Made by a program: the position numbers and the translations under genes. Of a stretch of DNA of 64,000 nucleotides, positions 23,612 to 48,697 are shown one piece after another. How positions within the stretch are numbered: position 1 is the stretch's first letter; each line of letters starts with the position of its first letter. Origin of the DNA: Minisyncoccota bacterium. GTDB taxonomy: Bacteria; Patescibacteriota; Minisyncoccia; Phycocordibacterales; UBA2100. Location: positions 28,431-92,430 of the forward strand of contig DATMBM010000016.1 of NCBI GenBank assembly GCA_035559235.1, given 5' to 3'. The notes beneath the pieces are model-generated. The model was not told the DNA's origin. It was given only the letters and a program-made list of their open reading frames with translations, and made no database searches.

Positions 23612-26600
23612 TTATTCGCGCGCGAGCTTCAATGCGACGTCGTAGTCGCCGATTTTCTGGCGCGTACCATGCACTGTACCAAAACCGATGGTCGCATGCG
23701 TCGTCTCGGCGATCGTGGTCTTGTTCCGCTCGATCAGTTCTTGTCCCTTCGGCGCATCAATCGTGAGCGTTACCGTATCGCGCGGATCGAGCCCCGCGTC
23801 CTTGCGAGCGCCCTGTATCGCGCGGATCAGCTCGCGTACGAAACCCTCTTCTTTCAGCTCTGCGGTGATTTCAGTATCCAATTGAATGTCTTCTGCGATA
23901 TCAGCCTGCTCGACTCCTTTTACATTCACCTCATCGCGAATGACTTCAAGCAGTTCGTCGGAGAGCCCCGCATGCTTGATGACGAGTTTTTTGAGCGGTT
24001 GGCGCACTTTGATGCCCGCCTTGTCGCGCGCCTCGAGCGCTTTTGAGACGATCGCGCGGACTTTCGCCATGTCCTCGAGGATTAGGTCTTGCTTGTGACC
24101 GCCAAAAAGTCTCGAGAAAAAACCAGTGCTGTGCGGCTCCGGCCACGACTCAAGGTGCACGCTTCCACCGCCTTCAATGCCGCGGTAGATGGAATCTGCG
24201 AGAAAAGGAGCAATCGGCGCCATAAGCTTCGCGAGCGTAAGCAGGACTTCCCGCTGCGTCGCAAGTGAATGGTGCTTGTCGTGCCATTCTCCCTTGACGC
24301 GCTCGCGCGAGCGACGCACGTACCACGTCGAATAATCGTCAACAAATTCACGGAGCGCGCGGCACGCACGCGGCGTGTCGTAGGCGTCCATCGCCTCGGT
24401 CACGTCCGCCGTCACTTCGTCGAGCCGCGCGAAGATCCACCGGTCAAGGACATGTTCGCTCGCGCGCGGCTTTGTGATGCCATCGTACTCCCGCTGGTAC
24501 AAATCAAAGAATTTGAACGTATTCCACAAAATGCCGATCACGCGATTGTGCGCGTCGCGCACGTCCTCGTCGCGGAACCGCAAATCTTCCGCCTGCATCA
24601 CTGGAGACGACATCAGATACAGGCGCAGTGCGTCGGAGCCGTAGCGGTCGACCAATTCCAAAGGGTCGGTGTAATTGCGCTTGGATTTCGAGATCTTCTC
24701 GCCATCCGCCGCAAGAATGGTGCCGGTTGAGACGACGGTGTGGAATGCAAGACGGTTGAACAGCAGGACTCCCATCGCGTGCATGTAGTAAAACCACGTG
24801 CGAGTCTGCGCAATGTATTCAGCAATGAAATCCCCGGGCGCGCGCTTTTCGAATTCGTCTTGGTTTTCAAACGGATAGTGGTATTCCGCGAAGGGCATCG
24901 AGCCGCTCTCCACCCAGCAGTCGACGACTTCCGGAATGCGGCGATATTCCTCACCGTCATCGCCAATAAGGACTAAATCGTCAATGTACGGCCGGTGCAG
25001 GTCGAGTTCGAATTCGGCATTCCACGGCATCGGGGCGAAATCGAATGCTTCCACCTTCCCCTTCTCCGGATACTCTGCGCTTCTCCGCATAACAGTTTCC
25101 TCCTTTGATAGGCCGCGCGCAGCTGATTTCAAAAGCCACAATGGCGTTCCGTGCGAGACGATCAAGATGTGTTCACCGTGGTGCGTTGCTTCCAGCTCAT
25201 GCATGAAGGCCATCATCCGCTTCTTGATGTCGGTGTAGGTTTCTCCGCCTTTTGGCGCTTTCGTAAAGCGATCCATCTTGTCCGGAAACGCCGCATGATA
25301 CTCCTCGAGTGTTTTGCCGCTGTATTCGCCGAACTGCGACTCGCCGATTCTCCCATCGACGACGACGCGGTCGTGCGGAATGCCGAGCGCTTCGGCAATG
25401 ATCTGAGCCGTCTCGCGCGTCCGCTTGAACGGTGACGCATATACGTATCCGATGTTCTTCTCGCGCAACTTTTCAGCCGCTTCGCGCACCTCTGCCTTGC
25501 CTTCTTCGGTAAGATGGATGTCCGCATCGACATCAGACGACACGATATCTTGCACATTGTTGTCGGCGCGTCCGTGGCGCATCACGAAATAGGTATTGCC
25601 GCTCTTTTTGACGCGCTGCCGTATCTCCTCAACCGATCCCACCACCATCACCTTTCCCTCTTTCGATTTCCAGATTGGCAAAGGCGAGGCCCAGAACCGA
25701 TTGCGCGAAATCGTCCAGTCCGGCGCATTCTCGACGATGTTGTAGAAACGGCCGTGCTTCAGATGGTCTGGCACCCAATTCACCTTCTCATTTTCGGAGA
25801 GCATCTTCGCTTTCACCTTCTGGATATTGATGAACCACGACGAGACGGCGTTGTAGATAAGGGGTGTGCCGCAGCGGTAGCAGTGCGGGTAGGAGTGCGT
25901 GTGATTTTCTCGTTTAAACAGGAGGCCGCGCTCCTGCAAATCGCGCTTGATGTCTTTCTCAGCGTCTTTTATGTATTTTCCGCGGATAAATTCCGGTACC
26001 TGATCGTTGTACGTGCCGTTCGGGTTCAGGAGCTGCACCATCGGAAGCCCTTCTTTTTGTCCGAGCACAAAGTCATCCTCGCCATACATCACCGCCGTGT
26101 GCACAATGCCGGTTCCCTCGTCGGTCGAGACGAATTCGGCCGCGTACACTTTGTATGACTTTTCTAATTTCAGCGCTGGCACCTCAAAGAGTGGCTCGTA
26201 TTCAAGACCAATCAGATTTTTGCCCGAAAATTCGTATCCTGAATTAGGATCACTGAGACCGAGCGCTGGCATCCGCTCTTTTGCGACCAAATAATATCTT
26301 CCCGGTTCGTATTGAACAGCACGATAACTTATGTCTGCACCCACAGCTAATGCCACGTTTCCAGGCAAGGTCCACGGAGTTGTTGTCCACGCGAGGAGAT
26401 GTACGTCCTGCCCAATACCGAGTTCAAATAATTTTGGAGTGGGTCTGACCTTGAACTTCACCGTCACCGCTTCCTCGGTGATATCTTCGTATGTATTGTC
26501 CTGAGCGATTTCCGCTTTCGCAAGCGGCGTCTCGCAATGCGGGCAATACATGAGGACTTTGCGCCCCTCGTAGAGCAAATCTTTCTCCCACAATTGCTTG

Positions 26601-27085
26601 AGTGCCCACCAGACAGACTCGATGTACGTGTTGTCCATCGTCTTGTACGAGTTGTCATAATCAACCCAGCGACCGATCCGATCGATATACTTTTTCCATT
26701 CGTCCACGTATTTCAAGACCATCGACCGCGCCTTCTCGTTGAAAGTCGCGATGCCGATGTCGAGGATATCTTTTTTTGTCTTAAGTCCTAGTTCTTTCTC
26801 GACGAGCGATTCGATCGGGAGTCCGTGCGTGTCCCATCCCCAACGACGTCGGACACGATAGCCGCGCATGGTCTTGTAGCGCGGAATGACGTCCTTAATT
26901 ATCGAAGATAATAAGGAGCCATGGTGAGGAAGCCCTGTCGCAAACGGCGGACCATCGTAAAAAACGAACTCTCCCTTTGGTGACTTCTTTTCTAGACTCC
27001 GTTCGAATGTCTTGTTTTCCCGCCAAAAAGCGAGTATGTCCTCCTCGCGCTTCGCCGTTTCGCTTTTGCCGCCCTGTTCAGCCAT
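23612..27085 (-). CDS. ileS: isoleucyl-tRNA synthetase (type 2-like) carrying a ~200-aa histidine-phosphatase (PGAM-like) domain inserted in the catalytic core
   Basis: HIGH region PPFATGLPHHG; WTISRNRFWASPLPIW; CWVESGSMPF; KMSKS-equivalent KISKSKRN; C-terminal anticodon-binding region. Between ...IWKSKEGKVMVVGSVEEIRQRV and ...EEYRRIPEVVDCWVESG lies VMRHGRADNN...SPFKRTRETA...ILIVSHGTPLW, the RHG...R...H...SHG histidine-phosphatase signature. The likely start is MAEQGG at 27085; the ORF extends to 27217. Confidence 0.93.
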   Translation of the reverse strand: MAEQGGKSETAKREEDILAFWRENKTFERSLEKKSPKGEFVFYDGPPFATGLPHHGSLLSSIIKDVIPRYKTMRGYRVRRRWGWDTHGLPIESLVEKELGLKTKKDILDIGIATFNEKARSMVLKYVDEWKKYIDRIGRWVDYDNSYKTMDNTYIESVWWALKQLWEKDLLYEGRKVLMYCPHCETPLAKAEIAQDNTYEDITEEAVTVKFKVRPTPKLFELGIGQDVHLLAWTTTPWTLPGNVALAVGADISYRAVQYEPGRYYLVAKERMPALGLSDPNSGYEFSGKNLIGLEYEPLFEVPALKLEKSYKVYAAEFVSTDEGTGIVHTAVMYGEDDFVLGQKEGLPMVQLLNPNGTYNDQVPEFIRGKYIKDAEKDIKRDLQERGLLFKRENHTHSYPHCYRCGTPLIYNAVSSWFINIQKVKAKMLSENEKVNWVPDHLKHGRFYNIVENAPDWTISRNRFWASPLPIWKSKEGKVMVVGSVEEIRQRVKKSGNTYFVMRHGRADNNVQDIVSSDVDADIHLTEEGKAEVREAAEKLREKNIGYVYASPFKRTRETAQIIAEALGIPHDRVVVDGRIGESQFGEYSGKTLEEYHAAFPDKMDRFTKAPKGGETYTDIKKRMMAFMHELEATHHGEHILIVSHGTPLWLLKSAARGLSKEETVMRRSAEYPEKGKVEAFDFAPMPWNAEFELDLHRPYIDDLVLIGDDGEEYRRIPEVVDCWVESGSMPFAEYHYPFENQDEFEKRAPGDFIAEYIAQTRTWFYYMHAMGVLLFNRLAFHTVVSTGTILAADGEKISKSKRNYTDPLELVDRYGSDALRLYLMSSPVMQAEDLRFRDEDVRDAHNRVIGILWNTFKFFDLYQREYDGITKPRASEHVLDRWIFARLDEVTADVTEAMDAYDTPRACRALREFVDDYSTWYVRRSRERVKGEWHDKHHSLATQREVLLTLAKLMAPIAPFLADSIYRGIEGGGSVHLESWPEPHSTGFFSRLFGGHKQDLILEDMAKVRAIVSKALEARDKAGIKVRQPLKKLVIKHAGLSDELLEVIRDEVNVKGVEQADIAEDIQLDTEITAELKEEGFVRELIRAIQGARKDAGLDPRDTVTLTIDAPKGQELIERNKTTIAETTHATIGFGTVHGTRQKIGDYDVALKLARE

Positions 27086-27108
27086 GTCGCGTATCGTAGC
27101 AAAGGGCG

Positions 27109-28128
27109 TCACTCTGCGCGAGACGTCTTCAGCCGTTTCTCCTTTTCGTGCCGCTCGATGGCGAGCCGGATGAGTGTGTCGATGAGTTTTGGGTAGGGCA
27201 TCCCCCACTCCTCCCACATCTTCGGATACATACTAATCGAGGTGAAGCCGGGGATGGTGTTGATTTCATTGACGAGCACTTTACCGAGCTTGGTGACGAA
27301 GAAATCAACTCGAGCCATCCCCTCGCAGCAGAGCGTCTTAAACACGAGCACGGCCATCCTTTGAATTTCCTTTACCCTTTTCTTCGGCAAATGTGCCGGA
27401 ATTTGAGGGATCATCGCCTCCGGGTCGAGGTATTTTGCCTCGTACGAATAAAACTCGCTGTTGAGTACCAATTCCCCCGGCACCGACGCAACCGGCCTCT
27501 CATTGCCAAGAACCGAACATTCGATCTCGCGGCCGTCGACAAACTCCTCGACGAGGATTTTCGTATCGTATTCGAATGCATGCCTCAGCGCCGCATTAAA
27601 TTCTTTTTCATTCCGTACTTTCGAGACACCGACCGACGAGCCGAGATTCGCAGGTTTTACGAACATCGGCAATCCTAATTTCTTCTTCGCGTCGGCAAAA
27701 CGAATCTTTTCGTGCGAATGAACAACGGCAAATCTCGCAATCGGAATTCCCGCATCGCGCAGAAGCCGCTTCATTACATCCTTGTCCATCCCGACTGCAG
27801 AACCAAGAACCCCTGCGCCTACAAACGGTACGTCCGCCAATTTCAAAAGCCCCTGCACCGTGCCGTCTTCGCCAAATGGTCCATGCAAGACTGGGAAGAC
27901 CACATCGAAGGTGTGCAAAAATCCAAAAATATCTTCGACACGCCTACCTGTTTCCAATAGTGATTCTTTCGCATACTTCCACACGCCCTTTGTATCAATG
28001 CACACCGTTCCAATGTCGTATTTCCTCCGATCGAGCGCCCTCACGACATTCCGTGCAGAAAGAATCGAAACTTCGTGCTCCGCCGACTTTCCGCCAAACA
28101 GTACCGCAATCCGTAGTTTCCGCTTCAT
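27109..28128 (-). CDS. ddl: D-alanine--D-alanine ligase
   Basis: MKRKLRIAVLFGGKSAEHEVSILSA... with an ATP-grasp fold; typical Ddl length of 339 aa. Confidence 0.92.
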   Translation of the reverse strand: MKRKLRIAVLFGGKSAEHEVSILSARNVVRALDRRKYDIGTVCIDTKGVWKYAKESLLETGRRVEDIFGFLHTFDVVFPVLHGPFGEDGTVQGLLKLADVPFVGAGVLGSAVGMDKDVMKRLLRDAGIPIARFAVVHSHEKIRFADAKKKLGLPMFVKPANLGSSVGVSKVRNEKEFNAALRHAFEYDTKILVEEFVDGREIECSVLGNERPVASVPGELVLNSEFYSYEAKYLDPEAMIPQIPAHLPKKRVKEIQRMAVLVFKTLCCEGMARVDFFVTKLGKVLVNEINTIPGFTSISMYPKMWEEWGMPYPKLIDTLIRLAIERHEKEKRLKTSRAE

Positions 28129-28153: not shown

Positions 28154-28765
28154 TTACACCAAACGCTCACCAAGCCGGTCAAGCGGTTCATGGAAATCCT
28201 TGATAACCTTCCCATTTCGGACAACGCTCCAGTCGCCAAAATTGTTACGCTTCAAGCGACTGTACACATCCTGTTCTCCCTGCAGCTCCGCAATGTACAT
28301 GTTCATCGTATATCCGTGACCGACAAACAAAATCTTCCTATTGTGATTTTCGGCATCGACAATCCCCACCTTTGTGGTGAACCGCTCTCGAGCGCTGGCC
28401 GCTGATTCCCACTTTCCGTCGTTGGCCTTAACCTCAGGATGCGTCAAGGCTTCTTTCGCAGTCGCTTCGTAAGTGTCGTGATCCATGAAATCGCCTTTGT
28501 CCCTATCCATTTCCGCGATTTCGCTGGAATACATGACTTCGAATTTTCTATTGGCTTCGCGCAATGTATCCAAAAGCGGCGCAATCGTTTGTTGCGCCTT
28601 CTTCTCAGTTGAAATGATGAAGATATCAACGTCGTGGAAAAATGTATTCTGCGCTATATCCTGCGCCTGCCGTGCGCCTTCCGTAGTCAAATCCCATTCG
28701 CTGATCGGCGTATCTTTATCAACTTTTGTTTCCCCATGCCGCAGGAAAATCAATGTGTTGTTCAT
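28154..28765 (-). CDS. histidine phosphatase family protein (phosphoglycerate-mutase-like), stand-alone
   Basis: LIFLRHGETKVD... (RHG catalytic motif) and ...ILFVGHGYTMNMY (second His). The start at MNNTLIFL overlaps the argS stop by 4 bp. Confidence 0.78.
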   Translation of the reverse strand: MNNTLIFLRHGETKVDKDTPISEWDLTTEGARQAQDIAQNTFFHDVDIFIISTEKKAQQTIAPLLDTLREANRKFEVMYSSEIAEMDRDKGDFMDHDTYEATAKEALTHPEVKANDGKWESAASARERFTTKVGIVDAENHNRKILFVGHGYTMNMYIAELQGEQDVYSRLKRNNFGDWSVVRNGKVIKDFHEPLDRLGERLV

Positions 28766-30441
28766 ACTTTCTCCGGCGCGGGAATGCCAAGGAGCCACAA
28801 GCCATTCTTGAGCGTGAGGCGCGTGATGTCAGCCACCGCGACTTTGTGCGCAGCCGCCGGAGTACCATCGAGGATCTGTTCTTTCGCGTACCAGCTGTTG
28901 AATGCGGACGCTATCATGATCAGATAATTAGCAACAATATGCGGCTCGAGCTGTTCCTGCGCCCGCACGACGGTCTCATAGAATCGGTAGACAAGGCGTG
29001 TTAGATCACTCGGCGGAGCGCCCGCGTCGAATTTCCCCTTCACTTTCGCCTCCTTCGCCTTTTCCATGATCGCGTGACAGCGTGCGTGCGTGTACTGGAG
29101 ATACGGCCCGGAGTCACCTTCGATCGAGAGCGCCTGCTCGCGGTTAAACACAATATCTTTTCCCATCGCGCCTTTCAGGATTTGGAATTTAATCGCCGCG
29201 ACGGCGATGTCTTGTGCGAGCTTTTCCTTATCTCGCGCGCGGCTCTCCGCCGCGCGCGCCTTTGCCACGTCGGCCAAATCCTCAATCAACGATTCTCCGG
29301 TGACGACATTGCCCGTGCGCGAGGACATCTTTCCTTCCTGTAGGCGCATCATCCCGTGCGAGACATGTCTCGTTTTTGCGGCGAGCTCCGGAAAGACTTC
29401 GCTCATCGCCGCAAGGAGCACCTTGAAATACTCGTTAATCTCATTGCCGGTGACGATCACCGACGTGTCGTACTTGAATGTGTCATACTTCATCTTCGAG
29501 AGCCCCAATTCTTTCGCCTCATACGTCGGCAGGCCTTCTGAATTCAGGAAGACGCGGGTGTGCAACCCTTTCTTTTCGCCGTCGTAGACGATGGCACCTT
29601 CGCTTTCCTTGAAAACGCCGTCTGCGACGTGTTTCTCAACCACCTGTTTGCCAAACGGCCCGGTCTCACTCTCGAAAAAATAGTAATCAAATTTCGTGCC
29701 GAGAATGTCGTACAGCTCCTCGAAATGCGCAAGTGACGTCTTTCGCCCTTCGTCGTACAGCTTGGTGATCGCCTTGTCGGAACGCTCGTACACCTTTTTG
29801 TTGATCGCGGTAATTTCTTCTTTTACCGGCGAACCATCGACATCCGCGGCCGCGCCTGCTGCATACGCGCGTCCCAACGCTTTCACATCCTTCGCACTTT
29901 CTCCGCTCTGCAGCAGCCCCCAAATTGCGCGCGCAACATGACGGCCAACATCGCCCTGGTAATTAGCGCGCTTCACGGTGGCGCCGGAAAACGCGAACAG
30001 GCGCGAAATGCTCTCGCCAATCGCGTTCGTTACGAGGTGGCCGATGTGGAATTCCTTAAATGGATTCGGGTCGGTGTATTCCACGATCACTTTCTTTCCC
30101 TTTAGACCGACGCCGCTGCCCCATTTCTCGCCATGCTTCCGTCCGATTTCCAGCATCTCATACAGATATTCCGGTGAGAGCGTGAAATTGATGAATCCTG
30201 GACCGGCGACTTCGACGCTCGCAACACCTTCGGCGTCGCGAACGGCCGCAGCGAGCTGTTCCGCAAGCTCGCGCGGGTTTTTCCCGAGCTGTTTTGCGTA
30301 AACGAGTGCGACATTTGAAGCGTAATCGCCGTGAGAAAGGTCGGCCGTATGTTCGAGCACAATGTCTTCGGGGACGACGGAACTACCCGCCCCGGCGAGT
30401 GCCTGTGCGAGTCGTTCACGAATTGAGGAAACGGGGTCCAT
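28762..30441 (-). CDS. argS: arginyl-tRNA synthetase
   Basis: N-terminal Arg_tRNA_synt_N-like domain, HIGH-equivalent region (PNPFKEFHIGHL), C-terminal DALR anticodon-binding domain. Confidence 0.93.
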   Translation of the reverse strand: MDPVSSIRERLAQALAGAGSSVVPEDIVLEHTADLSHGDYASNVALVYAKQLGKNPRELAEQLAAAVRDAEGVASVEVAGPGFINFTLSPEYLYEMLEIGRKHGEKWGSGVGLKGKKVIVEYTDPNPFKEFHIGHLVTNAIGESISRLFAFSGATVKRANYQGDVGRHVARAIWGLLQSGESAKDVKALGRAYAAGAAADVDGSPVKEEITAINKKVYERSDKAITKLYDEGRKTSLAHFEELYDILGTKFDYYFFESETGPFGKQVVEKHVADGVFKESEGAIVYDGEKKGLHTRVFLNSEGLPTYEAKELGLSKMKYDTFKYDTSVIVTGNEINEYFKVLLAAMSEVFPELAAKTRHVSHGMMRLQEGKMSSRTGNVVTGESLIEDLADVAKARAAESRARDKEKLAQDIAVAAIKFQILKGAMGKDIVFNREQALSIEGDSGPYLQYTHARCHAIMEKAKEAKVKGKFDAGAPPSDLTRLVYRFYETVVRAQEQLEPHIVANYLIMIASAFNSWYAKEQILDGTPAAAHKVAVADITRLTLKNGLWLLGIPAPEKV

Positions 30442-34663: not shown

Positions 34664-34664
34664 G

Positions 34665-34737
34665 GGCGATCGCCGGGAATCGAACCCGAATCGAGAGCTC
34701 CACAAGCTCCAGTGTTGACCGTTACACCACGATCGCC
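34665..34737 (-). tRNA. tRNA-His (anticodon GTG) with genomically encoded G-1
   Basis: Manual cloverleaf: G-1 + GCGATCG acceptor; D-stem GTGT/ACAC; anticodon stem GGAGC/GCTCT; loop TTGTGGA; T-arm TCGGG-TTCGATT-CCCGG; 3' CGATCGC-C. CCA is not encoded. Confidence 0.85.
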
Positions 34738-34785
34738 ATCAAACATGTGTGTTATAGCAAATTCATTGCCTTAGCGCGAGACGCG

Positions 34786-34811
34786 ATGCGGCCGCCTGAC
34801 GGCGGCCGCAT
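34786..34811. terminator. perfect GC hairpin (atgcggccgcc-tgac-ggcggccgcat) between the DUF4383 gene and tRNA-His
   Basis: 11-bp stem; weak U-tracts on either strand. Could terminate the DUF4383 gene or separate it from the tRNA promoter. Confidence 0.4.
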
Positions 34812-34832
34812 TTCCCGAGTCCCCTCGAGAAA

Positions 34833-35231
34833 CTACATCGCTGTACCCATACCTGCCGGAGTCGCTGCTGCAGCCGGCGAATCTTTCATCATAAAGCCGG
34901 CGTAGAGCGCAACCGCTGCGATCGCGAGATGGAGCAGATTGTCGGCCATGTTGACGCCGAAGAGGCCAAGGACCGTGTCGCCCTGCACGAACCCGACGAC
35001 TGTGACGACGGCATAGACGACGCCGAATACCTGGAAGTAGAGGCGCGAACTATACATGCCCCAAGCGGCAGCAAGTGCCGCAAGGCCGGTGACGATATGG
35101 ATGATATTGTGGAGCGCGTCCACGTGGAAGATGCCGAGGAGCATCCCGTCAGTCGTCACCCCCGGAACAAAGCCCAGGATCCCGACAAGAGTGAGTACGA
35201 TACCAAAAACCCATGCGAGTGTTTGAACCAT
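34833..35231 (-). CDS. DUF4383-family membrane protein (start at MVQTLAWVFG)
   Basis: Four TM helices with the conserved H-rich motif (HVDALHNIIHIVTGL) typical of DUF4383. Confidence 0.7.
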   Translation of the reverse strand: MVQTLAWVFGIVLTLVGILGFVPGVTTDGMLLGIFHVDALHNIIHIVTGLAALAAAWGMYSSRLYFQVFGVVYAVVTVVGFVQGDTVLGLFGVNMADNLLHLAIAAVALYAGFMMKDSPAAAATPAGMGTAM

Positions 35232-35368
35232 ACGAGTCTCAACTATTGGAGTACCTAGTTGGTAAATCCCCTTGTATTGGCGCGGAAATGGCACCAACAA
35301 TCGACCATTGATGATTTCATTGTGGGGCCCCTGCCGCAGCCCCGTCAAGGAAGGACGGTGGATGACTG

Positions 35369-36472
35369 TTAACGCTCAAGAAGGACGGTTTCCGAGGGCG
35401 TCTCGACGTTTTCGACCCGGAACGATACCCGGCCGATAAGCTTGCCCTGGTTGCGTACGTTCACGCGCCACCGCCCCTCCGCAGCGTTACTCAAAATTGT
35501 GTACCCCCGGTATCCGCCCTCGCGGCCGCCACTGATCGGAAAGGAAACGGAACTTCGCGTTTCCCATGATTTCGCGGCTTCGTCATAGTATTGCCACTCG
35601 TGCACGATCGTCGTCGAGAGCCGCGGCGGCGCATAGATCGCGCTAAAGACATACACGCGCTCCCCGGGAGCACGATGGAAGGTCGTATTGTAATTAAGGT
35701 ACTGCTGATACCACTCAAGAGGTTCCGCCTGCAGCGCATACACATCGCCAGTACGCTGCACGTCGTGGTACACGCCGGCCTCCTTGAGCGCGAGCGGGAT
35801 CGGCGGAATGGCGTTCGTAAAATAGAGCACGTTGAAGATGAGGAGAATCGAGCCGATGCTGCGCAACAATCGCCAGCGCGCGCCTCGGATGATGCCTGGC
35901 GCGAAGTAGCCAAATGCGCGAAGCAGGAGCACCATCACGACGACCGCAATCGCTTCGCTTACGAGAAACATCTCCGTTCCGATTCGCAGCGTCATGACCG
36001 GCAAGAAAAAAACGACGTAGGAAATGAGTGCGGTGAAAAAGATTGTTGCCTGGAATGCGAATTGCGTATACAACGTACGAAAACGCTCGTTGCCGACGAG
36101 CAACACGGCGAGGATCGCGATAAAAATCCAGCTGCTCGCGACCGCCGCACTCTGACTGTAGAGGATGACGAAGCCGCTAAAGAGCGCGCCGAAGGCGAAT
36201 TGTATTGCGGCGGGGATGAGCGGGATGATCTGGAGGAAGAGACGTCCCTTCAGACGCCCCGACTGGATGAGATGGAACAACACGATGCCCGCTGCGGCGA
36301 TCGTGAGATAACCGGAGAGCAAAAAGATGCTCGCAACAAAATCGACGTTCCGAAAAATCACCGCGTCAATCAAAAAGCCAGTGATGAGGGTGACTGGCGA
36401 GACGTACCGTTCGTACCAGTGGAGAAGCTCCTCTGTAGAGCGCGGAAGCTTGGAAAAGTACTGTCGCATCAT
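35369..36472 (-). CDS. polytopic membrane protein with a C-terminal DUF2914-like soluble domain
   Basis: ~8 TM helices, then an Ig-like C-terminal region (…IVHEWQYYDEAAKSWETRSSVSF…GRWRVNVRN) resembling DUF2914. Confidence 0.65.
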   Translation of the reverse strand: MMRQYFSKLPRSTEELLHWYERYVSPVTLITGFLIDAVIFRNVDFVASIFLLSGYLTIAAAGIVLFHLIQSGRLKGRLFLQIIPLIPAAIQFAFGALFSGFVILYSQSAAVASSWIFIAILAVLLVGNERFRTLYTQFAFQATIFFTALISYVVFFLPVMTLRIGTEMFLVSEAIAVVVMVLLLRAFGYFAPGIIRGARWRLLRSIGSILLIFNVLYFTNAIPPIPLALKEAGVYHDVQRTGDVYALQAEPLEWYQQYLNYNTTFHRAPGERVYVFSAIYAPPRLSTTIVHEWQYYDEAAKSWETRSSVSFPISGGREGGYRGYTILSNAAEGRWRVNVRNQGKLIGRVSFRVENVETPSETVLLER

Positions 36473-36502
36473 CCAATACTATCAGTTTTCAGGTCACTAT
36501 TG

Positions 36503-37105
36503 TCAGAGAAAATCCTTCACCATTATCTCGCGCGCTGCTCGAAGCGCCTTCCCTCGATGGCTAATACTGTTTTTCTCCTCCAACGTCAGTTCCGCCAAGG
36601 TTTTCCCAAGCTCGTCATTTAGGAAAATCGGATCATACCCGAATCCATCCGCTCCGCGCGGCTCAGTGGTTATACTCCCCTCGCACACTCCTTCGCACGT
36701 TCTCACCTTGTCGCTTTCCGGGTCAAACACGGCAATTACGGCGCGAAAGCGCGCCGTGCGCTTTTCCTCAGGGACGTCGGCAAGCTCACTCAGCACCTTC
36801 GTGTATCGATTCTTGTCGTCGCCGGAAGCATACCGGGCGCTATACACACCAGGCCGCCCTCCGAGCGCATCGATTTCAAGCCCGGAGTCATCGGCAAGCG
36901 TAAGGAGGTTTGTTTTCCTGCCGAGTGTCATAGCCTTAATCAAGGCGTTTCCTTCAAACGTGGTTGCCGGTTCTTCCACCGCGAAATCTTTCGGTAAACC
37001 CGGGACATCATTTAGATTCAAAAACTCAAGCGGCAAATCCTTGAGTCCCGCAACTATTTCCGGAAACTTTCCCTTCGATCGGGTTGCGATGAGGAGTTGT
37101 CTCAT
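36503..37105 (-). CDS. rdgB: non-canonical purine NTP pyrophosphatase (RdgB/HAM1 family); start MRQLLIATRSKGK
   Basis: Ham1 motifs (LIATRSKGKFPEI..., …SGLEIDALGGRPGVYSARYA…, FGYDPIF). The start abuts the tRNA-Leu 3' end. Confidence 0.88.
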   Translation of the reverse strand: MRQLLIATRSKGKFPEIVAGLKDLPLEFLNLNDVPGLPKDFAVEEPATTFEGNALIKAMTLGRKTNLLTLADDSGLEIDALGGRPGVYSARYASGDDKNRYTKVLSELADVPEEKRTARFRAVIAVFDPESDKVRTCEGVCEGSITTEPRGADGFGYDPIFLNDELGKTLAELTLEEKNSISHRGKALRAAREIMVKDFL

Positions 37106-37106
37106 G

Positions 37107-37190
37107 TGCGCAGGAGAGGACTCGAACCTCCATGCCCTTGCGGGCGCTACCACCTCAAGGTAGTACGTCTACCAATTTCGCCACCTGCGC
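37107..37190 (-). tRNA. tRNA-Leu (anticodon GAG), class II with a long variable arm
   Basis: Acceptor GCGCAGG/CCTGCGC; anticodon stem CTACC/GGTAG; loop TTGAGGT; variable arm CGCCCGCAAGGGCAT; T-loop TTCGAGT. Confidence 0.85.
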
Positions 37191-37200
37191 AGCGAAGCAA

Positions 37201-37659
37201 TTATTGCTTATTTTCCTCGGGAGTTCCAGCTTCCGCCGCTACTTCAGTTTCGGCAGTCGTTGCTTCGACAGGCGCTTCAGCCACAGGCTCTTCCGCGACC
37301 ATATCCCCGTCACGGACGAGGCGCTGACGGCGCAGCTGGCGGCGCGCTTCGCGCGCAACCTTCTCGCGTATGTAGTAGAGCTTCGCGCGGCGTACTCGCG
37401 CGCGTTTCACCAATTCGACGCGATCGATCATCGGAGAGTGTACGGGAAAAATCTTCTCGACGCCGACACCCGACGATACCTTGCGGACCGTAAACGTACC
37501 ACCCGCTTCGTTGCCATGCTTGCGCGCGAGAACGAGACCCTCAAACGCCTGCAGGCGGGTCTTTCCCTTCTCTTCGATTTTTTGCCAGACGCGCACCGTG
37601 TCTCCCGGCTTGATATCCGAGATGTTGGCGCCGCCTCCTTTGGATTTCGTTGCGATCAT
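37201..37659 (-). CDS. rplS: 50S ribosomal protein L19 with a C-terminal acidic/Ala-rich extension
   Basis: …[65 protein letters not shown] is canonical L19. Confidence 0.9.
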
Positions 37660-37678
37660 CGGCGGCACTCTACCACAG

Positions 37679-37951
37679 CTAGTAGATGATTTCAAATCGA
37701 CCGTATTCCTTCGTCGGCTGCCTCCACTCCACCTCGACGTTCGAAACCGTCGCTAAAAACGGGCCTTTCCGGATGTATTCGAGAAGTTTCTGCAGGCTGT
37801 CTTCGTACCCCTGCGCGACGACCTCGACGGTACCATTGGTGAGGTTGCGCACATAGCCGGTAAGCGCCAAGTGGCGCGCATGCTTTTCAACGAAGGCGCG
37901 ATACGTGACCATTTGGACCCGTCCGGAGACGATAGCGCGGAATTCTTCCAT
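37679..37951 (-). CDS. acyP: acylphosphatase
   Basis: …[14 protein letters not shown]…[17 protein letters not shown]… contains the acylphosphatase signatures. Confidence 0.85.
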
Positions 37952-37985
37952 TTCACCACTATACAAGATAGGATAGTCTTTAAGA

Positions 37986-38058
37986 CCCCTCGTAGTTCAA
38001 TGGATCAGAACTGCGGACTTCTAAGCCGCTAATGTAGGTTCGATTCCTACCGAGGGGA
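37986..38058 (+). tRNA. tRNA-Arg (anticodon TCT); acceptor stem begins C1:G72
   Basis: Acceptor CCCCTCG/CGAGGGG+A; D-arm TA-GTTC...GAAC; anticodon loop CTTCTAA, with one mismatch at the 31:39 pair; T-arm GTAGG-TTCGATT-CCTAC. Confidence 0.72.
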
Positions 38059-38061
38059 GAT

Positions 38062-38134
38062 GCGCGGTTAGCTCAGTTGGTAGAGCAACTCGTTTACACC
38101 GAGTGGGCCGGGGGTTCGAGTCCCTCACCGCGCA
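38062..38134 (+). tRNA. tRNA-Val (anticodon TAC)
   Basis: Acceptor GCGCGGT/ACCGCGC+A; D-arm TA-GCTC-AGTTGGTA-GAGC; anticodon stem ACTCG/CGAGT; loop TTTACAC; T-arm CCGGG-GGTTCGAG-TCCCT. Confidence 0.85.
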
Positions 38135-38431
38135 CTACGAAGGATCCGACAATGCCGGCGCCGTACGACGTTCGTCGAACCGCGTCGCGCGCTCATCGAA
38201 GCCGTCGAGGATTTCTTGCAGGTCGGCGCGATTTAATGGGGCCCGCGGCGAGCCGACCGTCACGTCGCTGCCACTTCCTTCGAGCGGACGGCTGAATTCC
38301 CAGGCGCCATACGCAATACTCAGAACCGTCGACAGTGCGAAAAGTGAGATCATCAGTGCCCAGTATGCCCGCGCAATCTGCGCATGCGCCTCGGGCTCGT
38401 GCCGAGCACGGAATGCATCTCGTATTTTCAT
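38135..38431 (-). CDS. hypothetical membrane-anchored protein, possible fourth gene (PilP-like position) of the pilM/N/O-like operon
   Basis: ORF directly downstream of the pilO-like gene. TM anchor AYWALMISLFALSTVLSIAYGAW. Sequence not diagnostic. Confidence 0.4.
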   Translation of the reverse strand: MKIRDAFRARHEPEAHAQIARAYWALMISLFALSTVLSIAYGAWEFSRPLEGSGSDVTVGSPRAPLNRADLQEILDGFDERATRFDERRTAPALSDPS

Positions 38432-38453
38432 GTTTGAGGTGCTGAGTCGCATA

Positions 38454-38960
38454 CTATTGAGACGGTGAGTACAGAACGCGCAAGCGCGCGGTCAGGTGCC
38501 AGGTATTTTCCCGCTGCTCCAGCTCAAAATGATCGAGCGCCGTCGGTAACGGAAGGACTTCAAAAAGGCTCACGGCGCGCATGAGCGATCCGAACGAGCC
38601 TGAGCCGTTGACGACAATTGAAACGGCGGAGAGGCCCCCGGTCGACGGCGCCGGTGCCGCTCCCCCGATCGTGATATTGCTCACGCCCGCTGCGCGCCCC
38701 GCCTGTTCGATACTTTCAACGGCCTGCAAGATGGAAATGGCAACAACGCTCTCGAGCGCTGCGCGTTCAACTTCGGTGCTCTGCACGCTCGCGCGCAGGC
38801 GTGCCGCCGATTCGCCGCGGATCGATTCTTGTTTTGCGCTCTCAAGCGCTTCGGCATACGTCGCACGCTCCTGTCCCAGCTGCCATATGAGTCCGCCAAA
38901 GCCCGCCCACAGAGCGATTGCGACGACGACCATCAGCCATGCAATGATTGAATACCGCAT
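38454..38960 (-). CDS. PilO-like type IV pilus assembly protein (bitopic)
   Basis: N-terminal TM helix (IIAWLMVVVAIALWAGFGGLIW), coiled region, C-terminal ferredoxin-like region. Positioned third in a pilM-N-O arrangement. Confidence 0.55.
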   Translation of the reverse strand: MRYSIIAWLMVVVAIALWAGFGGLIWQLGQERATYAEALESAKQESIRGESAARLRASVQSTEVERAALESVVAISILQAVESIEQAGRAAGVSNITIGGAAPAPSTGGLSAVSIVVNGSGSFGSLMRAVSLFEVLPLPTALDHFELEQRENTWHLTARLRVLYSPSQ

Positions 38961-38962
38961 AC

Positions 38963-39481
38963 CTAAAAATCACCGGTGAGTGTTATCGTAAATCGCCCTT
39001 CCTGCGCGCCGACAAGTGCCGCGACCGGCACGGAAACATCCGTAAAGGCGCCCGCCTCCCGCAGCGCATCGCGAAATTCGTTCACGGCTTCGCGAGATTG
39101 GGAGGTGCCCGAAAGGACAATCTGGTGCGTGGCCGCCTGGTACGTGAGTGCTGTTATCGAAATGCTTCGCGGCTGCAGTTCAAGCGCGAGCGCAAGTGCA
39201 TCTGAAACCGACGACGAGGCGTGTGTCAGCGGGCCGAGCGCCGTGACCAATGATTGCGCACGCGCCACTTTTTCCTGATCGTCCTGCGCGGCGCGCGTCT
39301 CTTCAAGCGAAGGCGCATGCAGCGAAGCTTGTGCGATCTGGACCGACACGAATGCGGGAGCGAGTGCGAGTGCGGCAACCAGTGCTGCAAGTGAGACGAT
39401 CGACGCACCGATGAATACAAATCGTGCACGCATCCGCCGATCGAGATTCTTCTTTGCTTCCCCCGTTAAGACATTGCTCAT
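38963..39481 (-). CDS. PilN-like type IV pilus assembly protein (bitopic)
   Basis: Conserved short cytoplasmic N-terminus (NLDRRMRARFVFIGASIVSLAALVAA), then TM and a periplasmic domain. Gene order directly after pilM. Confidence 0.55.
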   Translation of the reverse strand: MSNVLTGEAKKNLDRRMRARFVFIGASIVSLAALVAALALAPAFVSVQIAQASLHAPSLEETRAAQDDQEKVARAQSLVTALGPLTHASSSVSDALALALELQPRSISITALTYQAATHQIVLSGTSQSREAVNEFRDALREAGAFTDVSVPVAALVGAQEGRFTITLTGDF

Positions 39482-40569
39482 ACTGAGGCGACGCTTCGGA
39501 GCGCCAATCCGATCGCCGTCGCGTATTGGAACGACGCGCGATACGGAATGGAAGGAATGTAATCGTCAAACGAAAAAACGTTGCACCACACGTTCGGGCG
39601 CTCCGTAAACGCATGCACTTTGCCGGCGATATACTCAGGAAAACCTTTCAAATTGACGTTACCGCCGACCAGGAAGACGCGCTCAACGCCGCTATTCTGC
39701 GCGCTTTTGGTCCGATGCGTGTCCCAGAAGCGATAGTGCCGCGCGATTTCTTCCGCGAGCCCGGAAGCCACCTTGTCCACCGCCTCAAATCCCTTTTGTA
39801 GTTTCGGATCGTCGGGCACCAGGCCATGCTCATTCTTAAACTGGAGCGCATCTTCTTCTGAAATCGAAAGTGCTTCCATGAGTGCACGACTCATATGGTC
39901 GCCGCCGATGTCCACGGTGGACGTGAAAATCGGGATGCCATTTTTCAAGATTGCAACGCCGGTGCGCGCCTTTCCGCAATCCACCAGCAATGTCACCGGA
40001 TTATGTTCCGCGGGCGAAACCGCGCGCCCGATCGAGCGCGCCTCGATTTCCAGTGATACGAGCTCAATCCCGGATTTCGAAAACGCCTCGATGTACCCTT
40101 CGGCAAGTTCCCGCGGGAAAACCGTGACGGCGATTTCTTCTCCCGCATCGCCGCGCGCGCCGACGAAGTCGAAATCGTACACCGCCTGCTTTGGCGGAAT
40201 CGGGACCCGCCCTTCCAGCTCGAACTCGATCATGCTCGTGATCTGCGCGCGGCTCGATCCGGGATGCACGTGCATGCTGAAGACATATGCGCCCTCTTCG
40301 GGAAGCGCTGCGTGCGCAGCAACCACGCGCCCCTGCTTCTTGACCTCCTTGAGCGCATCCGCAAGCGCGTCGGCATTACGGATAGCTCCCGTCTGCACGA
40401 TGTCGGGACCGATGTCGTGCGAACCGTAATTGACGATGCGGCTGCCATCGGCGGCGGGCGCAAGCGTGAGCCACTTGATGGAGGTGTCGCTGATGTCGAC
40501 CCCGGATGCAAGCGGGCTCAATGTGCGAGGCACTGGAAACCAGCGCGCAAGTGTGCGCGTGAACATCAT
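39478..40569 (-). CDS. pilM: type IV pilus assembly protein PilM (actin-like ATPase fold)
   Basis: …GVDISDTSIKWLTLAPAADGSRIVNYGSHDIGPDIV… and …VDCGKARTGVAIL… are typical PilM/FtsA-like motifs. 363 aa. Confidence 0.8.
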   Translation of the reverse strand: MMFTRTLARWFPVPRTLSPLASGVDISDTSIKWLTLAPAADGSRIVNYGSHDIGPDIVQTGAIRNADALADALKEVKKQGRVVAAHAALPEEGAYVFSMHVHPGSSRAQITSMIEFELEGRVPIPPKQAVYDFDFVGARGDAGEEIAVTVFPRELAEGYIEAFSKSGIELVSLEIEARSIGRAVSPAEHNPVTLLVDCGKARTGVAILKNGIPIFTSTVDIGGDHMSRALMEALSISEEDALQFKNEHGLVPDDPKLQKGFEAVDKVASGLAEEIARHYRFWDTHRTKSAQNSGVERVFLVGGNVNLKGFPEYIAGKVHAFTERPNVWCNVFSFDDYIPSIPYRASFQYATAIGLALRSVASV

Positions 40570-40591
40570 TCAAAAAAGTATAGCACTTCTT

Positions 40592-40933
40592 TTACTTCAA
40601 TTGCGTGCCGTTTGGAACGGGCGCGTCGGGTATCAGGAGCGCGAGCGTCTCGTCTGACGACGCCGCGAGGAGCATCCCCTGGCTTTCGATGCCGCGGAGC
40701 ATTCGTGGCGCGAGGTTCACAATATAGGGAAGTTGCTTGCCAACGATCTCTTCCGGCTTCCGGAAGAGCGCGATGCCCGAGACGATCGTGCGCTCGCCAA
40801 GCTCGCCGAAATCCACCGTGCACTTGATGAGCTTGTCGGCGCCTTCGACCATTTCTGCCGCAACGACCGTGCCGAGGCGGATGTCGAGTTTCGCGAAGTC
40901 GTCGTATGCGATCTCTGGCTTTTGTTCGCTCAT
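40592..40933 (-). CDS. tRNA-binding domain protein (CsaA / MetRS C-terminal EMAPII-like OB fold); start MSEQKPEIAYDD
   Basis: …FAKLDIRLGTVVAAEMVEGADKLIKCTVDFGE…RTIVSGIALF…LPYIVNLAPRMLRGIESQGMLLAAS… is the Trbp111/CsaA signature. The upstream part of the ORF is a GC-rich artefact. Confidence 0.8.
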   Translation of the reverse strand: MSEQKPEIAYDDFAKLDIRLGTVVAAEMVEGADKLIKCTVDFGELGERTIVSGIALFRKPEEIVGKQLPYIVNLAPRMLRGIESQGMLLAASSDETLALLIPDAPVPNGTQLK

Positions 40934-40943
40934 GCGTGAGAGA

Positions 40944-41330
40944 TTACTCCGTTTTCCCCCGCGCGTCGAGAAACCGCTGCAAAATGATGGCGGCCGCGGC
41001 GGAATCGTCGTGCACGCCATTCGGCGCGAACCGTCCGGCCTCCACCGAGCTCCACGCTTCCCACGCACGATGGATGGGGATCGTGACGCGCTCGCCAAGC
41101 CGCTCCGCAAAGTGGTCTGCTTCGAATGTCACCGGATTTTCGACGCCGTTTGCGGCGCGCGCATCGCCAATAACAATGGCGCCGACGTTTGCATCGATCA
41201 GTTTCGCGATATGATCGAATGCTGCGTCGTCGTTGGGGATCGTTTCCTTGGGAAACGCGAACCCGCCCGTTTCGTCGGAGAGCGCGATGCCGATCCGCTT
41301 TGCGCCGAAGTCGATGCCGAGATATCGCAT
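40944..41330 (-). CDS. ruvX: Holliday-junction-resolvase-like nuclease YqgF/RuvX (pre-16S rRNA nuclease); start MRYLGIDFG
   Basis: MRYLGIDFGAKRIGIALSDETGGFAFP… and …AIVIGDA… are canonical YqgF. The remainder of the 251-aa ORF is upstream noise. Confidence 0.85.
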   Translation of the reverse strand: MRYLGIDFGAKRIGIALSDETGGFAFPKETIPNDDAAFDHIAKLIDANVGAIVIGDARAANGVENPVTFEADHFAERLGERVTIPIHRAWEAWSSVEAGRFAPNGVHDDSAAAAIILQRFLDARGKTE

Positions 41331-41337
41331 ATGCCAA

Positions 41338-41748
41338 CTATGACCGAAGTCTGCTTGTTTTGAAAGTCTCGGGCTTGAATGCCTTAAGCCTGACAACGAG
41401 CGGCGTGAGCCCTGCGTGCGCAAGCGCGTGGGGGAGCGCTTCCACGTATTCGCCTTTCTGGTCGTAGCCGAGCGCGATAATCTCCGGCGCCTCGCGCACA
41501 ATATGTTGGATGAATCCTTCTTCGTCTCCAAGCACCGCCTTGTCGACAAGCGGATGCGCAGCGACGAGCGCAAGGCGCTCGTCCTCAGAACGCTGTGGCG
41601 CTGCTGAGCGATGACGGGTCGCCGCGGCATCCCGCGCCACCGATACAATGAGGTATGGATCGTCTGCAAGGGATCGCGCTTGCCGGAAAAAATCTTCATG
41701 ACCCATGTGGATCATATCGAACGTGCCGAAAACCATTATTTTTTTCAT
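41338..41748 (-). CDS. cytidylyl/adenylyl-transferase-like nucleotidyltransferase (HxGH motif); start [11 protein letters not shown]
   Basis: [17 protein letters not shown] is the (T/H)xGH nucleotidyltransferase signature (CTP:glycerol-3-P cytidylyltransferase / NMNAT-like). The ORF N-terminus overlaps tRNA-Ser and is discarded. Confidence 0.72.
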
Positions 41749-41749
41749 T

Positions 41750-41834
41750 GCCGAGGGGGTGAGATTCGAACTCACGGTCCCTTGCGAGACTCTTGTTTTC
41801 AAGACAAGCGCGTTAGACCACTCCGCCACCCCTC
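41750..41834 (-). tRNA. tRNA-Ser (anticodon TGA), class II; acceptor stem begins C1:G72
   Basis: Acceptor CGAGGGG/CCCCTCG+G; TG-GCG-GAGTGGTCTAA-CGC; anticodon stem CTTGT/ACAAG; loop CTTGAAA; long variable arm AGTCTCGCAAGGGACC; T-arm GTGAG-TTCGAAT-CTCAC. Confidence 0.8.
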
Positions 41835-41888
41835 GGAATCATTAGAGTTGTAGCACACCACTTCGAAAAACGCGATACAATAGACGCC

Positions 41889-42359
41889 ATGCCGGAGCAA
41901 ACGGGAGGGACTTTGCGCTGGAGCGCCTACGAGCACGAGCACATCGAGCGCGGCAGCGACTGGTACTGGGCACTCGGCATCATCGCCGTGTGCGCCGCCG
42001 TCACGAGCATCCTCTTCGGGAATTTTCTGTTCGCGCTCCTCATCGTGGTTGCCGCATTCACGATCGGCATCATCGCACAGCAGCCACCGGAACTGCATGA
42101 ATTCGAACTCAGCGAAAAAGGCATCCGTATCGGGAAGGATTTCCATTCGTACGATACGATGCTCTCATTCTGGGTGGACGACGAGATCGACGAGCCGCTT
42201 TTGCTGGTGGATACGACGAAATTTTTGAGCCCGAACCTCATCATCCCAGTCGGCGACATGCATCCGGACACGATCCGCGACTTTTTGCGCCCTCACGTCG
42301 AAGAAGTGCCGATGAAAGAACCCATCGCACACAAGATATTGGAATTCTTTGGCTTCTAA
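41889..42359 (+). CDS. hypothetical membrane protein (156 aa, 2 TM)
   Basis: Hydrophobic pair (WYWALGIIAVCAAVTSILFGNFLFALLIVVAAFTIGII) followed by a soluble tail. Confidence 0.5.
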   Translation: MPEQTGGTLRWSAYEHEHIERGSDWYWALGIIAVCAAVTSILFGNFLFALLIVVAAFTIGIIAQQPPELHEFELSEKGIRIGKDFHSYDTMLSFWVDDEIDEPLLLVDTTKFLSPNLIIPVGDMHPDTIRDFLRPHVEEVPMKEPIAHKILEFFGF

Positions 42360-44389: not shown

Positions 44390-44445
44390 GCGGTAATGAT
44401 GCGCCCTTTAGAGAGTCGTCGCAATGAACGCGTGTGGAAACCATG

Positions 44446-44519
44446 CTCTCGGTAGGAATCGAACCTACATTACATCCTCCGCAAGGATGCGTCCTATCCA
44501 TTGAACGACGAGAGCGTCG
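44446..44519 (-). tRNA. tRNA-Arg (anticodon reads GCG as parsed; G37)
   Basis: Acceptor GCTCTCG/CGAGAGC+A; D-stem GTTC/GGAC; anticodon stem CATCC/GGATG; loop TTGCGGA; T-arm GTAGG-TTCGATT-CCTAC. Confidence 0.72.
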
Positions 44520-44553
44520 CCTCACAATACCTACAAAACGCCGTAGCGTAAAG

Positions 44554-44787
44554 TTATTTCGCCTTTTTCGCAAGCCGCGACTTCATGCGCGACGCGGTAT
44601 TCTTCTTAATGACACCGCGCTTCAGGGCCTTGTCGATCGCCTGGTAGGCGCTCGAGAGATTTTCGGCATTTGCGGTTTTTTGAGCCACCTTCACCGCGTC
44701 CTTCATAGCCTTCGCGCGACGCAGGTTGAATACGCGTCGACGCATCTCGACGCGGACAGCTTTCTTGGCGGAACTCGTGTTTGCCAT
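44554..44787 (-). CDS. rpsT: 30S ribosomal protein S20
   Basis: MANTSSAKKAVRVEMRRRVFNLRRAKAMK…: typical S20 basic helical protein, 77 aa. Confidence 0.92.
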   Translation of the reverse strand: MANTSSAKKAVRVEMRRRVFNLRRAKAMKDAVKVAQKTANAENLSSAYQAIDKALKRGVIKKNTASRMKSRLAKKAK

Positions 44788-44839
44788 TGCGCGATACTAC
44801 CCCGTCGCGTCCTTTCACGCAAGACGGTATGATGGGCGC

Positions 44840-46671: not shown

Positions 46672-46689
46672 TCGGATACAATAGAGTGC

Positions 46690-48190: not shown

Positions 48191-48247
48191 GCGCGCACAG
48201 TACCATCTTGTTTTTATTCCCGAAACCTGTACGCTACAACCTATCCT

Positions 48248-48592: not shown

Positions 48593-48624
48593 TTCCCCAT
48601 TGTTTCAAGGTATAGTGCGCAAAA

Positions 48625-48697
48625 CCGCCCATAGCTCAGCCGGTAGAGCAGCTGCCTTTTAAGCAGTTGGCCGTTGGTTCGAATCCAACTGGGCGGA
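48625..48697 (+). tRNA. tRNA-Lys (anticodon TTT); acceptor stem begins C1:G72
   Basis: CCGCCCA-TA-GCTC-AGCCGGTA-GAGC-A-GCTGC-CTTTTAA-GCAGT-TGGCC-GTTGG-TTCGAAT-CCAAC-TGGGCGG-A. Confidence 0.85.

Follow-up and report, generated by a model that had tools for sequence, protein, structure and literature searches.

The ileS locus

The gene considered here is ileS, encoding isoleucyl-tRNA synthetase (IleRS), of a Minisyncoccota bacterium (Patescibacteriota; GenBank assembly GCA_035559235.1), whose product carries a predicted histidine phosphatase nested inside the synthetase. It lies on the minus strand of a 64,000-nucleotide stretch of contig DATMBM010000016.1 (positions 28,431 to 92,430), which is termed the window and to which all coordinates refer. 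In the open reading frame (ORF) listing of the window a minus-strand ORF is unbroken over 23612-27217, and the likely ileS start within it is the ATG at 27085 (N-terminus MAEQGG), 23 nt past the stop of the preceding, probable ddl gene. The first-pass annotation, made from the DNA letters alone, had described ileS as continuous through the inserted segment, and a single minus-strand frame of 1157 aa does run through it from this likely ATG. The gene and the synthetase parts of its product are the following:

23612..27085, minus strand: ileS coding sequence, 1157 aa and stop; type-2 (eukaryote-like) IleRS with nested phosphatase, as assigned from the ORF, TIGR00392 and PDB matches
25616..27085, minus strand: IleRS residues 1-490, comprising the Rossmann N-half, CP core, CP1 editing domain, CP2, and the first β-hairpin and helix of CP3 (aligned to yeast IleRS 5-490)
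26915..26926, minus strand: HIGH signature in the form HHGS, aa 54-57 (relatives' consensus HxGH)
26369..26389, minus strand: WTTTPWT, Thr-rich editing-domain peptide (invariant in 44 relatives)
25691..25720, minus strand: CP2-CP3 linker segment, aa 456-465 (DWxISRxRxW type), ~26 aa upstream of the insert
23615..25006, minus strand: IleRS residues 694-1157, comprising the second CP3 hairpin (DLHRPYID...), Rossmann C-half (DCWVES, KISKS), anticodon-binding domain and type-2 C-terminal domain (DUF5915) (Pfam, PDB alignment)
24683..24697, minus strand: KMSKS signature in the form KISKS, aa 797-801 (motif reading)

Judged from its sequence, the window protein has the characters of a type-2 IleRS with regard to score, motifs, editing domain and C-terminal domain. 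The whole protein scores 832 bits against TIGR00392 (ileS), for which the NCBIfam equivalog cutoff is 621.4, and its closest solved structures are type-2 enzymes at E~1e-200 (yeast 8WND/7D5C, T. thermophilus 1ILE and P. megaterium IleRS2 8C8U), type-1 IleRS following at ~1e-90. The Pfam matches run in the order tRNA-synt_1, split by His_Phos_1, then Anticodon_1 and DUF5915, and together with tRNA-synt_1g these are the only Pfam families matched. The AlphaFold2 (AF2) model of the full protein, computed with the 44 full-length relatives as input, reached a mean predicted local distance difference test score (pLDDT) of 91.2 and a predicted template modelling score (pTM) of 0.87, and its Foldseek comparison with type-2 IleRS (8c8w/1ile) gave target-normalised template modelling (TM) scores of 0.82-0.93. 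The synthetase motifs on both sides of the insert, which had been called intact, are indeed present: KISKS, RIPEVVDCW and the editing motifs WTTTPWT, GTGIVH and D338, the editing motifs being invariant among the 44 relatives. In yeast the counterpart of aa 456-465, the CP2-3 linker, forms part of the wall of the tRNA A76 / reveromycin pocket (PMC7955072). The HHGS form of the HIGH signature occurs also in close relatives such as P0054.

A phosphatase domain nested in CP3

The segment that interrupts the synthetase and the residues predicted to form its active site are listed below:

25007..25615, minus strand: inserted segment, residues 491-693 (~203 aa), predicted complete branch-1 histidine phosphatase with linkers (Pfam, alignment to solved IleRS, AF2)
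25097..25588, minus strand: Pfam His_Phos_1 (PF00300) match, residues 500-663 (E=2e-38)
25571..25579, minus strand: RHG motif, R503-H504-G505, with H504 as predicted nucleophile (R and H in 142/142 CP3-nested copies)
25421..25423, minus strand: R555, predicted second phosphate-binding Arg (142/142 copies)
25340..25342, minus strand: E582, predicted acid/base Glu (E or D in 140/142 copies)
25151..25153, minus strand: H645 of SHG, predicted second catalytic His (142/142 copies)

Alignment to type-1 and type-2 IleRS, which the first-pass annotation had advised, delimits the insert to residues ~491-693, in CP3. Query residue 490 corresponds to yeast 490 and query 694 to yeast 498, therefore ~203 residues stand in for a linker of ~7 residues. 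The limits of CP3 have been given as 459-526 in yeast and 473-534 in Candida (PMC7955072, PMC7191050), and the host site is therefore the CP3 subdomain, peripheral and variable in kind, between its two β-hairpins. The insert starts ~26 residues behind the aa 456-465 segment and ends ~28 residues ahead of DCWVES. The interval originally assigned to it, 24947-25597, does contain the phosphatase (residues 497-713), but it also takes in ~20 aa of IleRS CP3, and the alignment-based segment 25007-25615 is used in its place. The first-pass annotation gave the usual spacing of the flanking elements as ~45 aa, zinc knuckle included, and this agrees with the nearest insert-free relative, L020, in which 42 aa with CxC...CxxC extend from 'GSAKEL' to 'RIPEVIDCW'.

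By score, catalytic set and predicted fold the insert qualifies as a complete branch-1 histidine phosphatase. The proposed His_Phos_1 match was recovered by profile hidden Markov model (HMM) search with E=2e-38 in the whole protein and E=9e-40 for the originally noted interval alone (132.5-136.8 bits against a gathering threshold of 21.7), and all of the phosphatase motifs that had been quoted, RHG, SPFKRTRE (containing R555) and ILIVSHG (containing H645), were found. The nearest PDB sequences are free-standing branch-1 histidine phosphatases, namely PspA 4IJ5 (E=3e-15), PhoE 1EBB/1H2E and GpgP. The insert alone was modelled by AF2 with a pLDDT of 95.9 in a phosphoglycerate-mutase-like α/β fold, for which Foldseek returned a probability of 1.00 against 4ij6, 1h2e, 4qih and 6nru; PspA, mycobacterial hydrolases/GpgP, PhoE, CobC and HFP of the riboflavin pathway come closest in structure, and every one of them is a phosphomonoesterase of small molecules that has a cap subdomain. 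The insert was thus confirmed as having a histidine-phosphatase fold and as being no known IleRS-specific insertion.

Narrower family assignments were rejected. For a 2,3-bisphosphoglycerate-dependent phosphoglycerate mutase (dPGM) the NCBIfam scores are too low (dPGM_arch 102 against a cutoff of 225, GpmB 57 against 261, others lower), and by eye the insert is without the basic residues found behind the acid Glu of E. coli GpmA. The named phosphatase equivalogs were likewise dismissed (PspA 78 against 350, CobC 86 against 163, SixA 40 against 74.5 and PRK13462 39 against 226). The top NCBIfam match of the insert, NF005567 (RNase H/acid phosphatase), reaches 103 bits where the cutoff is 326.

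Recurrence and conservation among Patescibacteria

The question whether the chimera recurs in related genomes can be answered affirmatively, from nine species genomes, at least 216 sequence clusters and many separate assemblies. The scan of one genome per GTDB species gave nine loci from Patescibacteria, with the labels Paceibacterota, Nomurabacteria or 'Patescibacteria group', which share 42-59% identity over insert and flanks in genomes of 33-53% guanine plus cytosine (GC), and each has an uninterrupted ORF of 1145-1218 aa, short contigs excepted. A HMMER search of 1.84 billion cluster representatives (50% identity clusters) with insert and flanks as query matched at least 216 clusters at E<=1e-30, and among the best 150 of the 216 nearly all span the whole query within IleRS-sized proteins. 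One of the matching clusters contains GenBank KKW19263.1, from a Parcubacteria metagenome-assembled genome (MAG), annotated just as 'Isoleucine-tRNA ligase'. The insert behaves as a Patescibacteria lineage feature, as had been supposed when it was put forward as a lineage marker, and it offers an easy way to recognise lineages within Patescibacteria from sequence.

These data bear on whether the chimera might be an artefact of assembly or gene calling, or else an intein-like selfish element. The source is of metagenome type, and some relatives are fragmented by frameshifts: in L016 (3487-6866) the insert-bearing ileS falls into many short ORFs, apparently owing to frameshift errors in a long-read assembly, and P0018 is fragmented by frameshifts too. 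Against this, the same architecture is met with in many independent assemblies, together with conserved junctions ('KKSGN.Y' and 'F.P.P.N..YE.D.HRPY'); no break in GC content accompanies the insert segment; and the Pfam scan of the whole protein found no intein or Hint family. Recurrence in many independent assemblies therefore excludes mis-assembly for practical purposes, and the chance that the chimera is an artefact or an intein-like element is considered negligible. L016 has in addition a TnpB-like gene and a Cas1 gene between argS and ileS.

Full-length relatives were drawn from the genome scan and the cluster-representative search. In 44 of them (36-53% identity) R503, H504, R555, E615 and H645 are invariant, and so are the lysines and serine of KMSKS, WTTTPWT, GTG.VH and the zinc cysteines of the CP core. 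Considering CP3-nested copies only, both Arg and both His are found in 142/142 and E or D at the acid position in 140/142. Residues of both enzymes are conserved, therefore both are under purifying selection.

Could the domain be a non-catalytic module, i.e., a structural stand-in for a lost zinc ribbon or a ligand-sensing/allosteric pseudo-enzyme? The CP3 zinc-ribbon cysteines (CxxC...CxxC) are lost in the window IleRS (~25640-25690 and ~24940-24990, minus strand), while they are retained in the consensus of the relatives and in the insert-free L020, and the insert with both of its junctions is ordered in the full AF2 model (above 85-90 pLDDT), as might be expected of a structural replacement. 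Such a role is nevertheless very improbable, given that most relatives have zinc ribbon and insert side by side and that the catalytic residues are strictly conserved over ~140 divergent copies.

Architectural variants

The commonest architecture among the relatives is a single phosphatase copy in the CP3 loop, and several others were encountered. P0235, P0194 and P0258 have two tandem copies in this loop, and in P0241 a copy is placed after the second Cys pair of CP3. A copy lies between DCWFESGSMPYA and FPADFIAEG in P0245 and P0241, and at the start of the anticodon-binding domain in P0220, P0217, L023 and L012. In P0239 (1161 aa, truncated by the contig end) the N-terminal half of a valyl-tRNA synthetase (ValRS; valS 381-411 bits, NCBIfam) is followed by four tandem His_Phos_1 domains.

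In L012 (1-3849), which has two phosphatase inserts, the IleRS frame is broken by in-frame TGA codons only, and gene callers split its ileS into three genes; the sequence is consistent with genetic code 25, of the kind seen in Gracilibacteria/Absconditabacteria. P0190 contains, besides the CP3 phosphatase, a P-loop kinase-like domain at residues ~737-869, between DCWFESG and FPADFIAEG. This extra domain matches Pfam AAA_18 (E=1.7e-6) and AAA_33 and has borderline PDB similarity to adenosine 5'-phosphosulfate (APS) kinase, shikimate kinase and Pnkp1, and the Pfam and PDB comparisons give nothing finer than 'kinase-like' for it.

The phosphatase-ileS gene pair

The link between the two activities is not confined to the nested form, since P0029, P0033, P0086 and P0071, the free-standing proteins closest to the insert, are encoded beside ileS. 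Three gene orders illustrate this:

L018: argS, phosphatase, ileS
L020: argS, x, phosphatase, intervening genes, then ileS without CP3 insert
L023 (1219-5534): ileS with an insert at the anticodon-domain site, followed by a free phosphatase gene with a 4-nt overlap at the ileS end

The genome of L023, from another lineage, holds nested and adjacent phosphatase copies together, which was seen also with L021, L022 and L024.

When metagenomes were scanned with a profile built from the free proteins, 80 loci came up, which are the best matches to this one profile, near-duplicates included, and which were sorted by HMM analysis as follows:

12/80 loci: nested in IleRS
51/80 loci: free gene, directly followed by the ileS start on the same strand (abutting or overlapping ORFs)
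4/80 loci: free gene, ileS within 3 kb
7/80 loci: free gene, no ileS nearby
6/80 loci: free gene, contig ends (uninformative)

Hence ileS follows immediately downstream in 51/62 of the informative free-gene loci and lies within 3 kb in 4 further ones. The adjacent IleRS carry no insert, because their length is 925-1032 aa. The gene argS is upstream in 37 loci, and in five genomes of the nested form it is upstream of ileS with no free phosphatase between. With the HMM of the free-gene family the window insert reaches 180.7 bits, above its Pfam score, and the nested domain matches the free protein from the N-terminus (N.YF..RHG) through the C-terminal strand. In the neighbour-joining (NJ) tree of phosphatase domains, which is star-like, nested and free copies are not separated. 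The pattern is a Rosetta-stone relationship that is realised through insertion instead of end-to-end fusion.

The adjacency of the two genes also makes local rearrangement easy, and it may be asked whether an adjoining phosphatase gene simply fell into a permissive surface loop of ileS and was tolerated there, the two activities being linked by co-expression only. CP3 topology differs among IleRS structures (β-β-α-α in Candida; β-α-α-β-β with zinc in Thermus; three helices in S. aureus; PMC7191050), and in the window protein even the zinc cysteines of CP3 are gone, both of which speak for a tolerant loop. The same loop has received another guest in a Saprospiraceae MAG of the Bacteroidota (JADLCC010000614.1, L010 4453-8376): its type-2 IleRS of 1308 aa has there a DUF559 / Vsr-like endonuclease domain (DUF559 E=3.4e-35, Pfam), the tRNA-synt_1 profile being broken at position 273, compared with 271 in the window protein, therefore the site is generally permissive. 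Neutral capture is, however, poorly compatible with an adjacency conserved over 39-65% identity and with the complementarity of nested and free states, and the independent insertion sites, the tandem arrays and the ValRS case point to selection for physical linkage. It is thus judged distinctly improbable as an account of the insert.

A putative bifunctional synthetase

The window protein is probably bifunctional, i.e., a working type-2 IleRS that holds a complete and, as predicted from sequence and model, competent phosphatase of the PhoE/PspA/CobC small-molecule type, and that represents the fused state of a conserved Patescibacteria phosphatase-ileS module. This reading builds on the domain identity, the insertion point, both motif sets, the recurrence, the strict catalytic conservation and the either-nested-or-adjacent pattern, all of which were observed. 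By analogy with the established mechanism of the superfamily, H504 would attack a phosphomonoester to give a phospho-histidine intermediate, R503, R555 and H645 would hold the phosphate, and E582 would act as the proton donor. Aminoacylation and editing would presumably run as in other IleRS, and the fusion would hold the phosphatase close to the synthetase and in a constant ratio to it.

Several observations weigh against the bifunctional reading. The fourth position of HIGH deviates in the window protein (HHGS, where at least 90% of the 44 relatives agree with HxGH), and the insert misses all of the NCBIfam equivalog cutoffs. The proportion of 51/62, coming from best matches to one profile with near-duplicates among them, is no phylogenetically corrected frequency, and in a crude NJ tree of IleRS bodies nested and adjacent types are interspersed, so that the number and direction of events are not settled by it. 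The position of the insert may, moreover, mirror structural tolerance and not function, given the DUF559 domain in the same loop.

With regard to the substrate, a small phosphorylated metabolite or nucleotide is favoured by analogy as the default over a macromolecule, because the domain resembles PspA/PhoE/CobC/GpgP, has a cap and is not basic in composition. That the link persists in so many forms (as operon neighbour, at several insertion sites, in tandem arrays and in a ValRS) in turn suggests a functional tie to tRNA charging, and the phosphatase might then act on the CCA end of the tRNA or on the synthetase.

The alternative that follows from this tie is that the phosphatase acts on the macromolecular partners of the synthetase, with removal of a 2'/3'-phosphate or of a toxin-derived pyrophosphate from the CCA end, or dephosphorylation of the synthetase, as a built-in repair or anti-toxin activity. 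Marks of this sort exist in nature, the CCA end being pyrophosphorylated by toxSAS toxins and synthetases being phosphorylated by HipA-type kinases. The connection is persistently with class Ia enzymes (three or four sites in IleRS, tandem copies, four copies in a ValRS), the phosphatase is an operon neighbour of ileS and argS as well, and the insert is near tRNA-facing segments, ~26 aa after DWxISRxRxW with its A76 pocket and ~28 aa before DCWxES; the relative P0190 even adds the P-loop kinase-like domain with its weak resemblance to Pnkp1. The nearest sequence and structure relatives are, on the other hand, capped small-molecule phosphatases, unlike protein- or RNA-directed members such as SixA, and basicity, examined as a hint of RNA binding, was not found (median pI, the isoelectric point, ~6.5 for the phosphatase domains). 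In addition, we know of no branch-1 histidine phosphatase that acts on RNA 3' ends. Action on macromolecular partners therefore seems rather unlikely. Its more specific form, a cis-acting quality control that would clear a CCA-end phosphate or pyrophosphate, or a kinase-toxin mark, before charging, is held to be unlikely too, and a little more so. If this repair reading were true, class Ia synthetases of Patescibacteria would have gained a second proofreading-like hydrolytic domain besides CP1.

Relation to known systems

Compared with solved type-2 IleRS (1ILE; 8C8U/8C8W; 7D5C/8WND), the window protein has the same fold, domain order, KMSKS, editing motifs and C-terminal domain, and differs in the ~200-aa enzyme domain that its CP3 loop holds in place of ~7-20 residues and in HHGS at the place of HIGH; from the Thermus-type enzyme it differs further in the loss of the CP3 zinc cysteines. 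PhoE, PspA, CobC and GpgP (1H2E, 4IJ5, 6NRU, 4QIH) share with the insert the fold, the RHG...R...E...H set and a cap region of similar size, yet they are free-standing enzymes with known small substrates, whereas the window copy is nested in a synthetase. In the actinobacterial RNase H/acid phosphatase (Rv2228c type, NF005567) a CobC/PhoE-like phosphatase is likewise joined to a nucleic-acid enzyme, although there by end-to-end fusion and with a different partner, and not by nested insertion.

Catalytic domains nested in synthetases have precedents. The CP1 editing domain is one, but it is universal, acts on aminoacyl-tRNA and is no phosphatase; NF040702 ('IleRS, N-acetyltransferase domain-containing') is another, with a GNAT domain at a different place and again no phosphatase. 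The Saprospiraceae IleRS shares the CP3 loop with the window protein, while its guest has an unrelated Vsr-like endonuclease fold and its host belongs to another phylum.

The first-pass annotation knew of no description of a phosphatase nested in an IleRS, and none was found in the searchable literature: full-text searches returned no histidine phosphatase described in or beside an aminoacyl-tRNA synthetase. The phosphatase-IleRS link, nested or directly upstream, is present across many ultra-small Patescibacteria, and no description of it was found in that literature either. Insert-bearing sequences have stood in public databases for years as plain IleRS or as fragments, and the finding bears on annotation as well: the current labels are plain IleRS, 'class I tRNA ligase family protein' or 'histidine phosphatase family protein, partial', and in code-25 lineages gene callers split the proteins. 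Few enzymes are as conserved as the aminoacyl-tRNA synthetases, and to our knowledge new catalytic domains within synthetase cores are rare in bacteria. An apparently active phosphatase is here tied to IleRS in three ways, nested, adjacent upstream and adjacent downstream, across a large, uncultivated and poorly understood radiation, which leads to the testable prediction that both enzymes serve a common process. The CP3 loop is also identified as a natural permissive site for whole-domain insertion in a class Ia synthetase, which is useful for protein engineering.

Neighbouring genes in the window

Upstream of ileS, on the same strand, lie three genes of interest:

28762..30441, minus strand: argS, the conserved upstream member of argS-phosphatase-ileS (HMM scan)
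28154..28798, minus strand: free-standing divergent His_Phos_1 gene that overlaps the argS end (Pfam E=5.6e-16), with Lys for the second catalytic Arg
27109..28128, minus strand: probable D-alanine--D-alanine ligase gene (ddl), between the free phosphatase gene and ileS (translation reading only)

The free-standing His_Phos_1 gene occupies the syntenic slot of the operon phosphatase of the relatives. It is neither the recent source of the insert nor a recent copy of it: BLASTP gave no significant similarity between the two, and the gene scores only 38 bits against the family HMM. Ten large ORFs of the window, which was not searched exhaustively, were scanned and included no second class Ia synthetase or insert-bearing aminoacyl-tRNA synthetase, and two window ORFs of 677 aa each are unrelated to each other. 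Seven tRNA genes, tRNA-Ile not among them, are located at 34664-48697 (His, Leu, Arg x2, Val, Ser and Lys).

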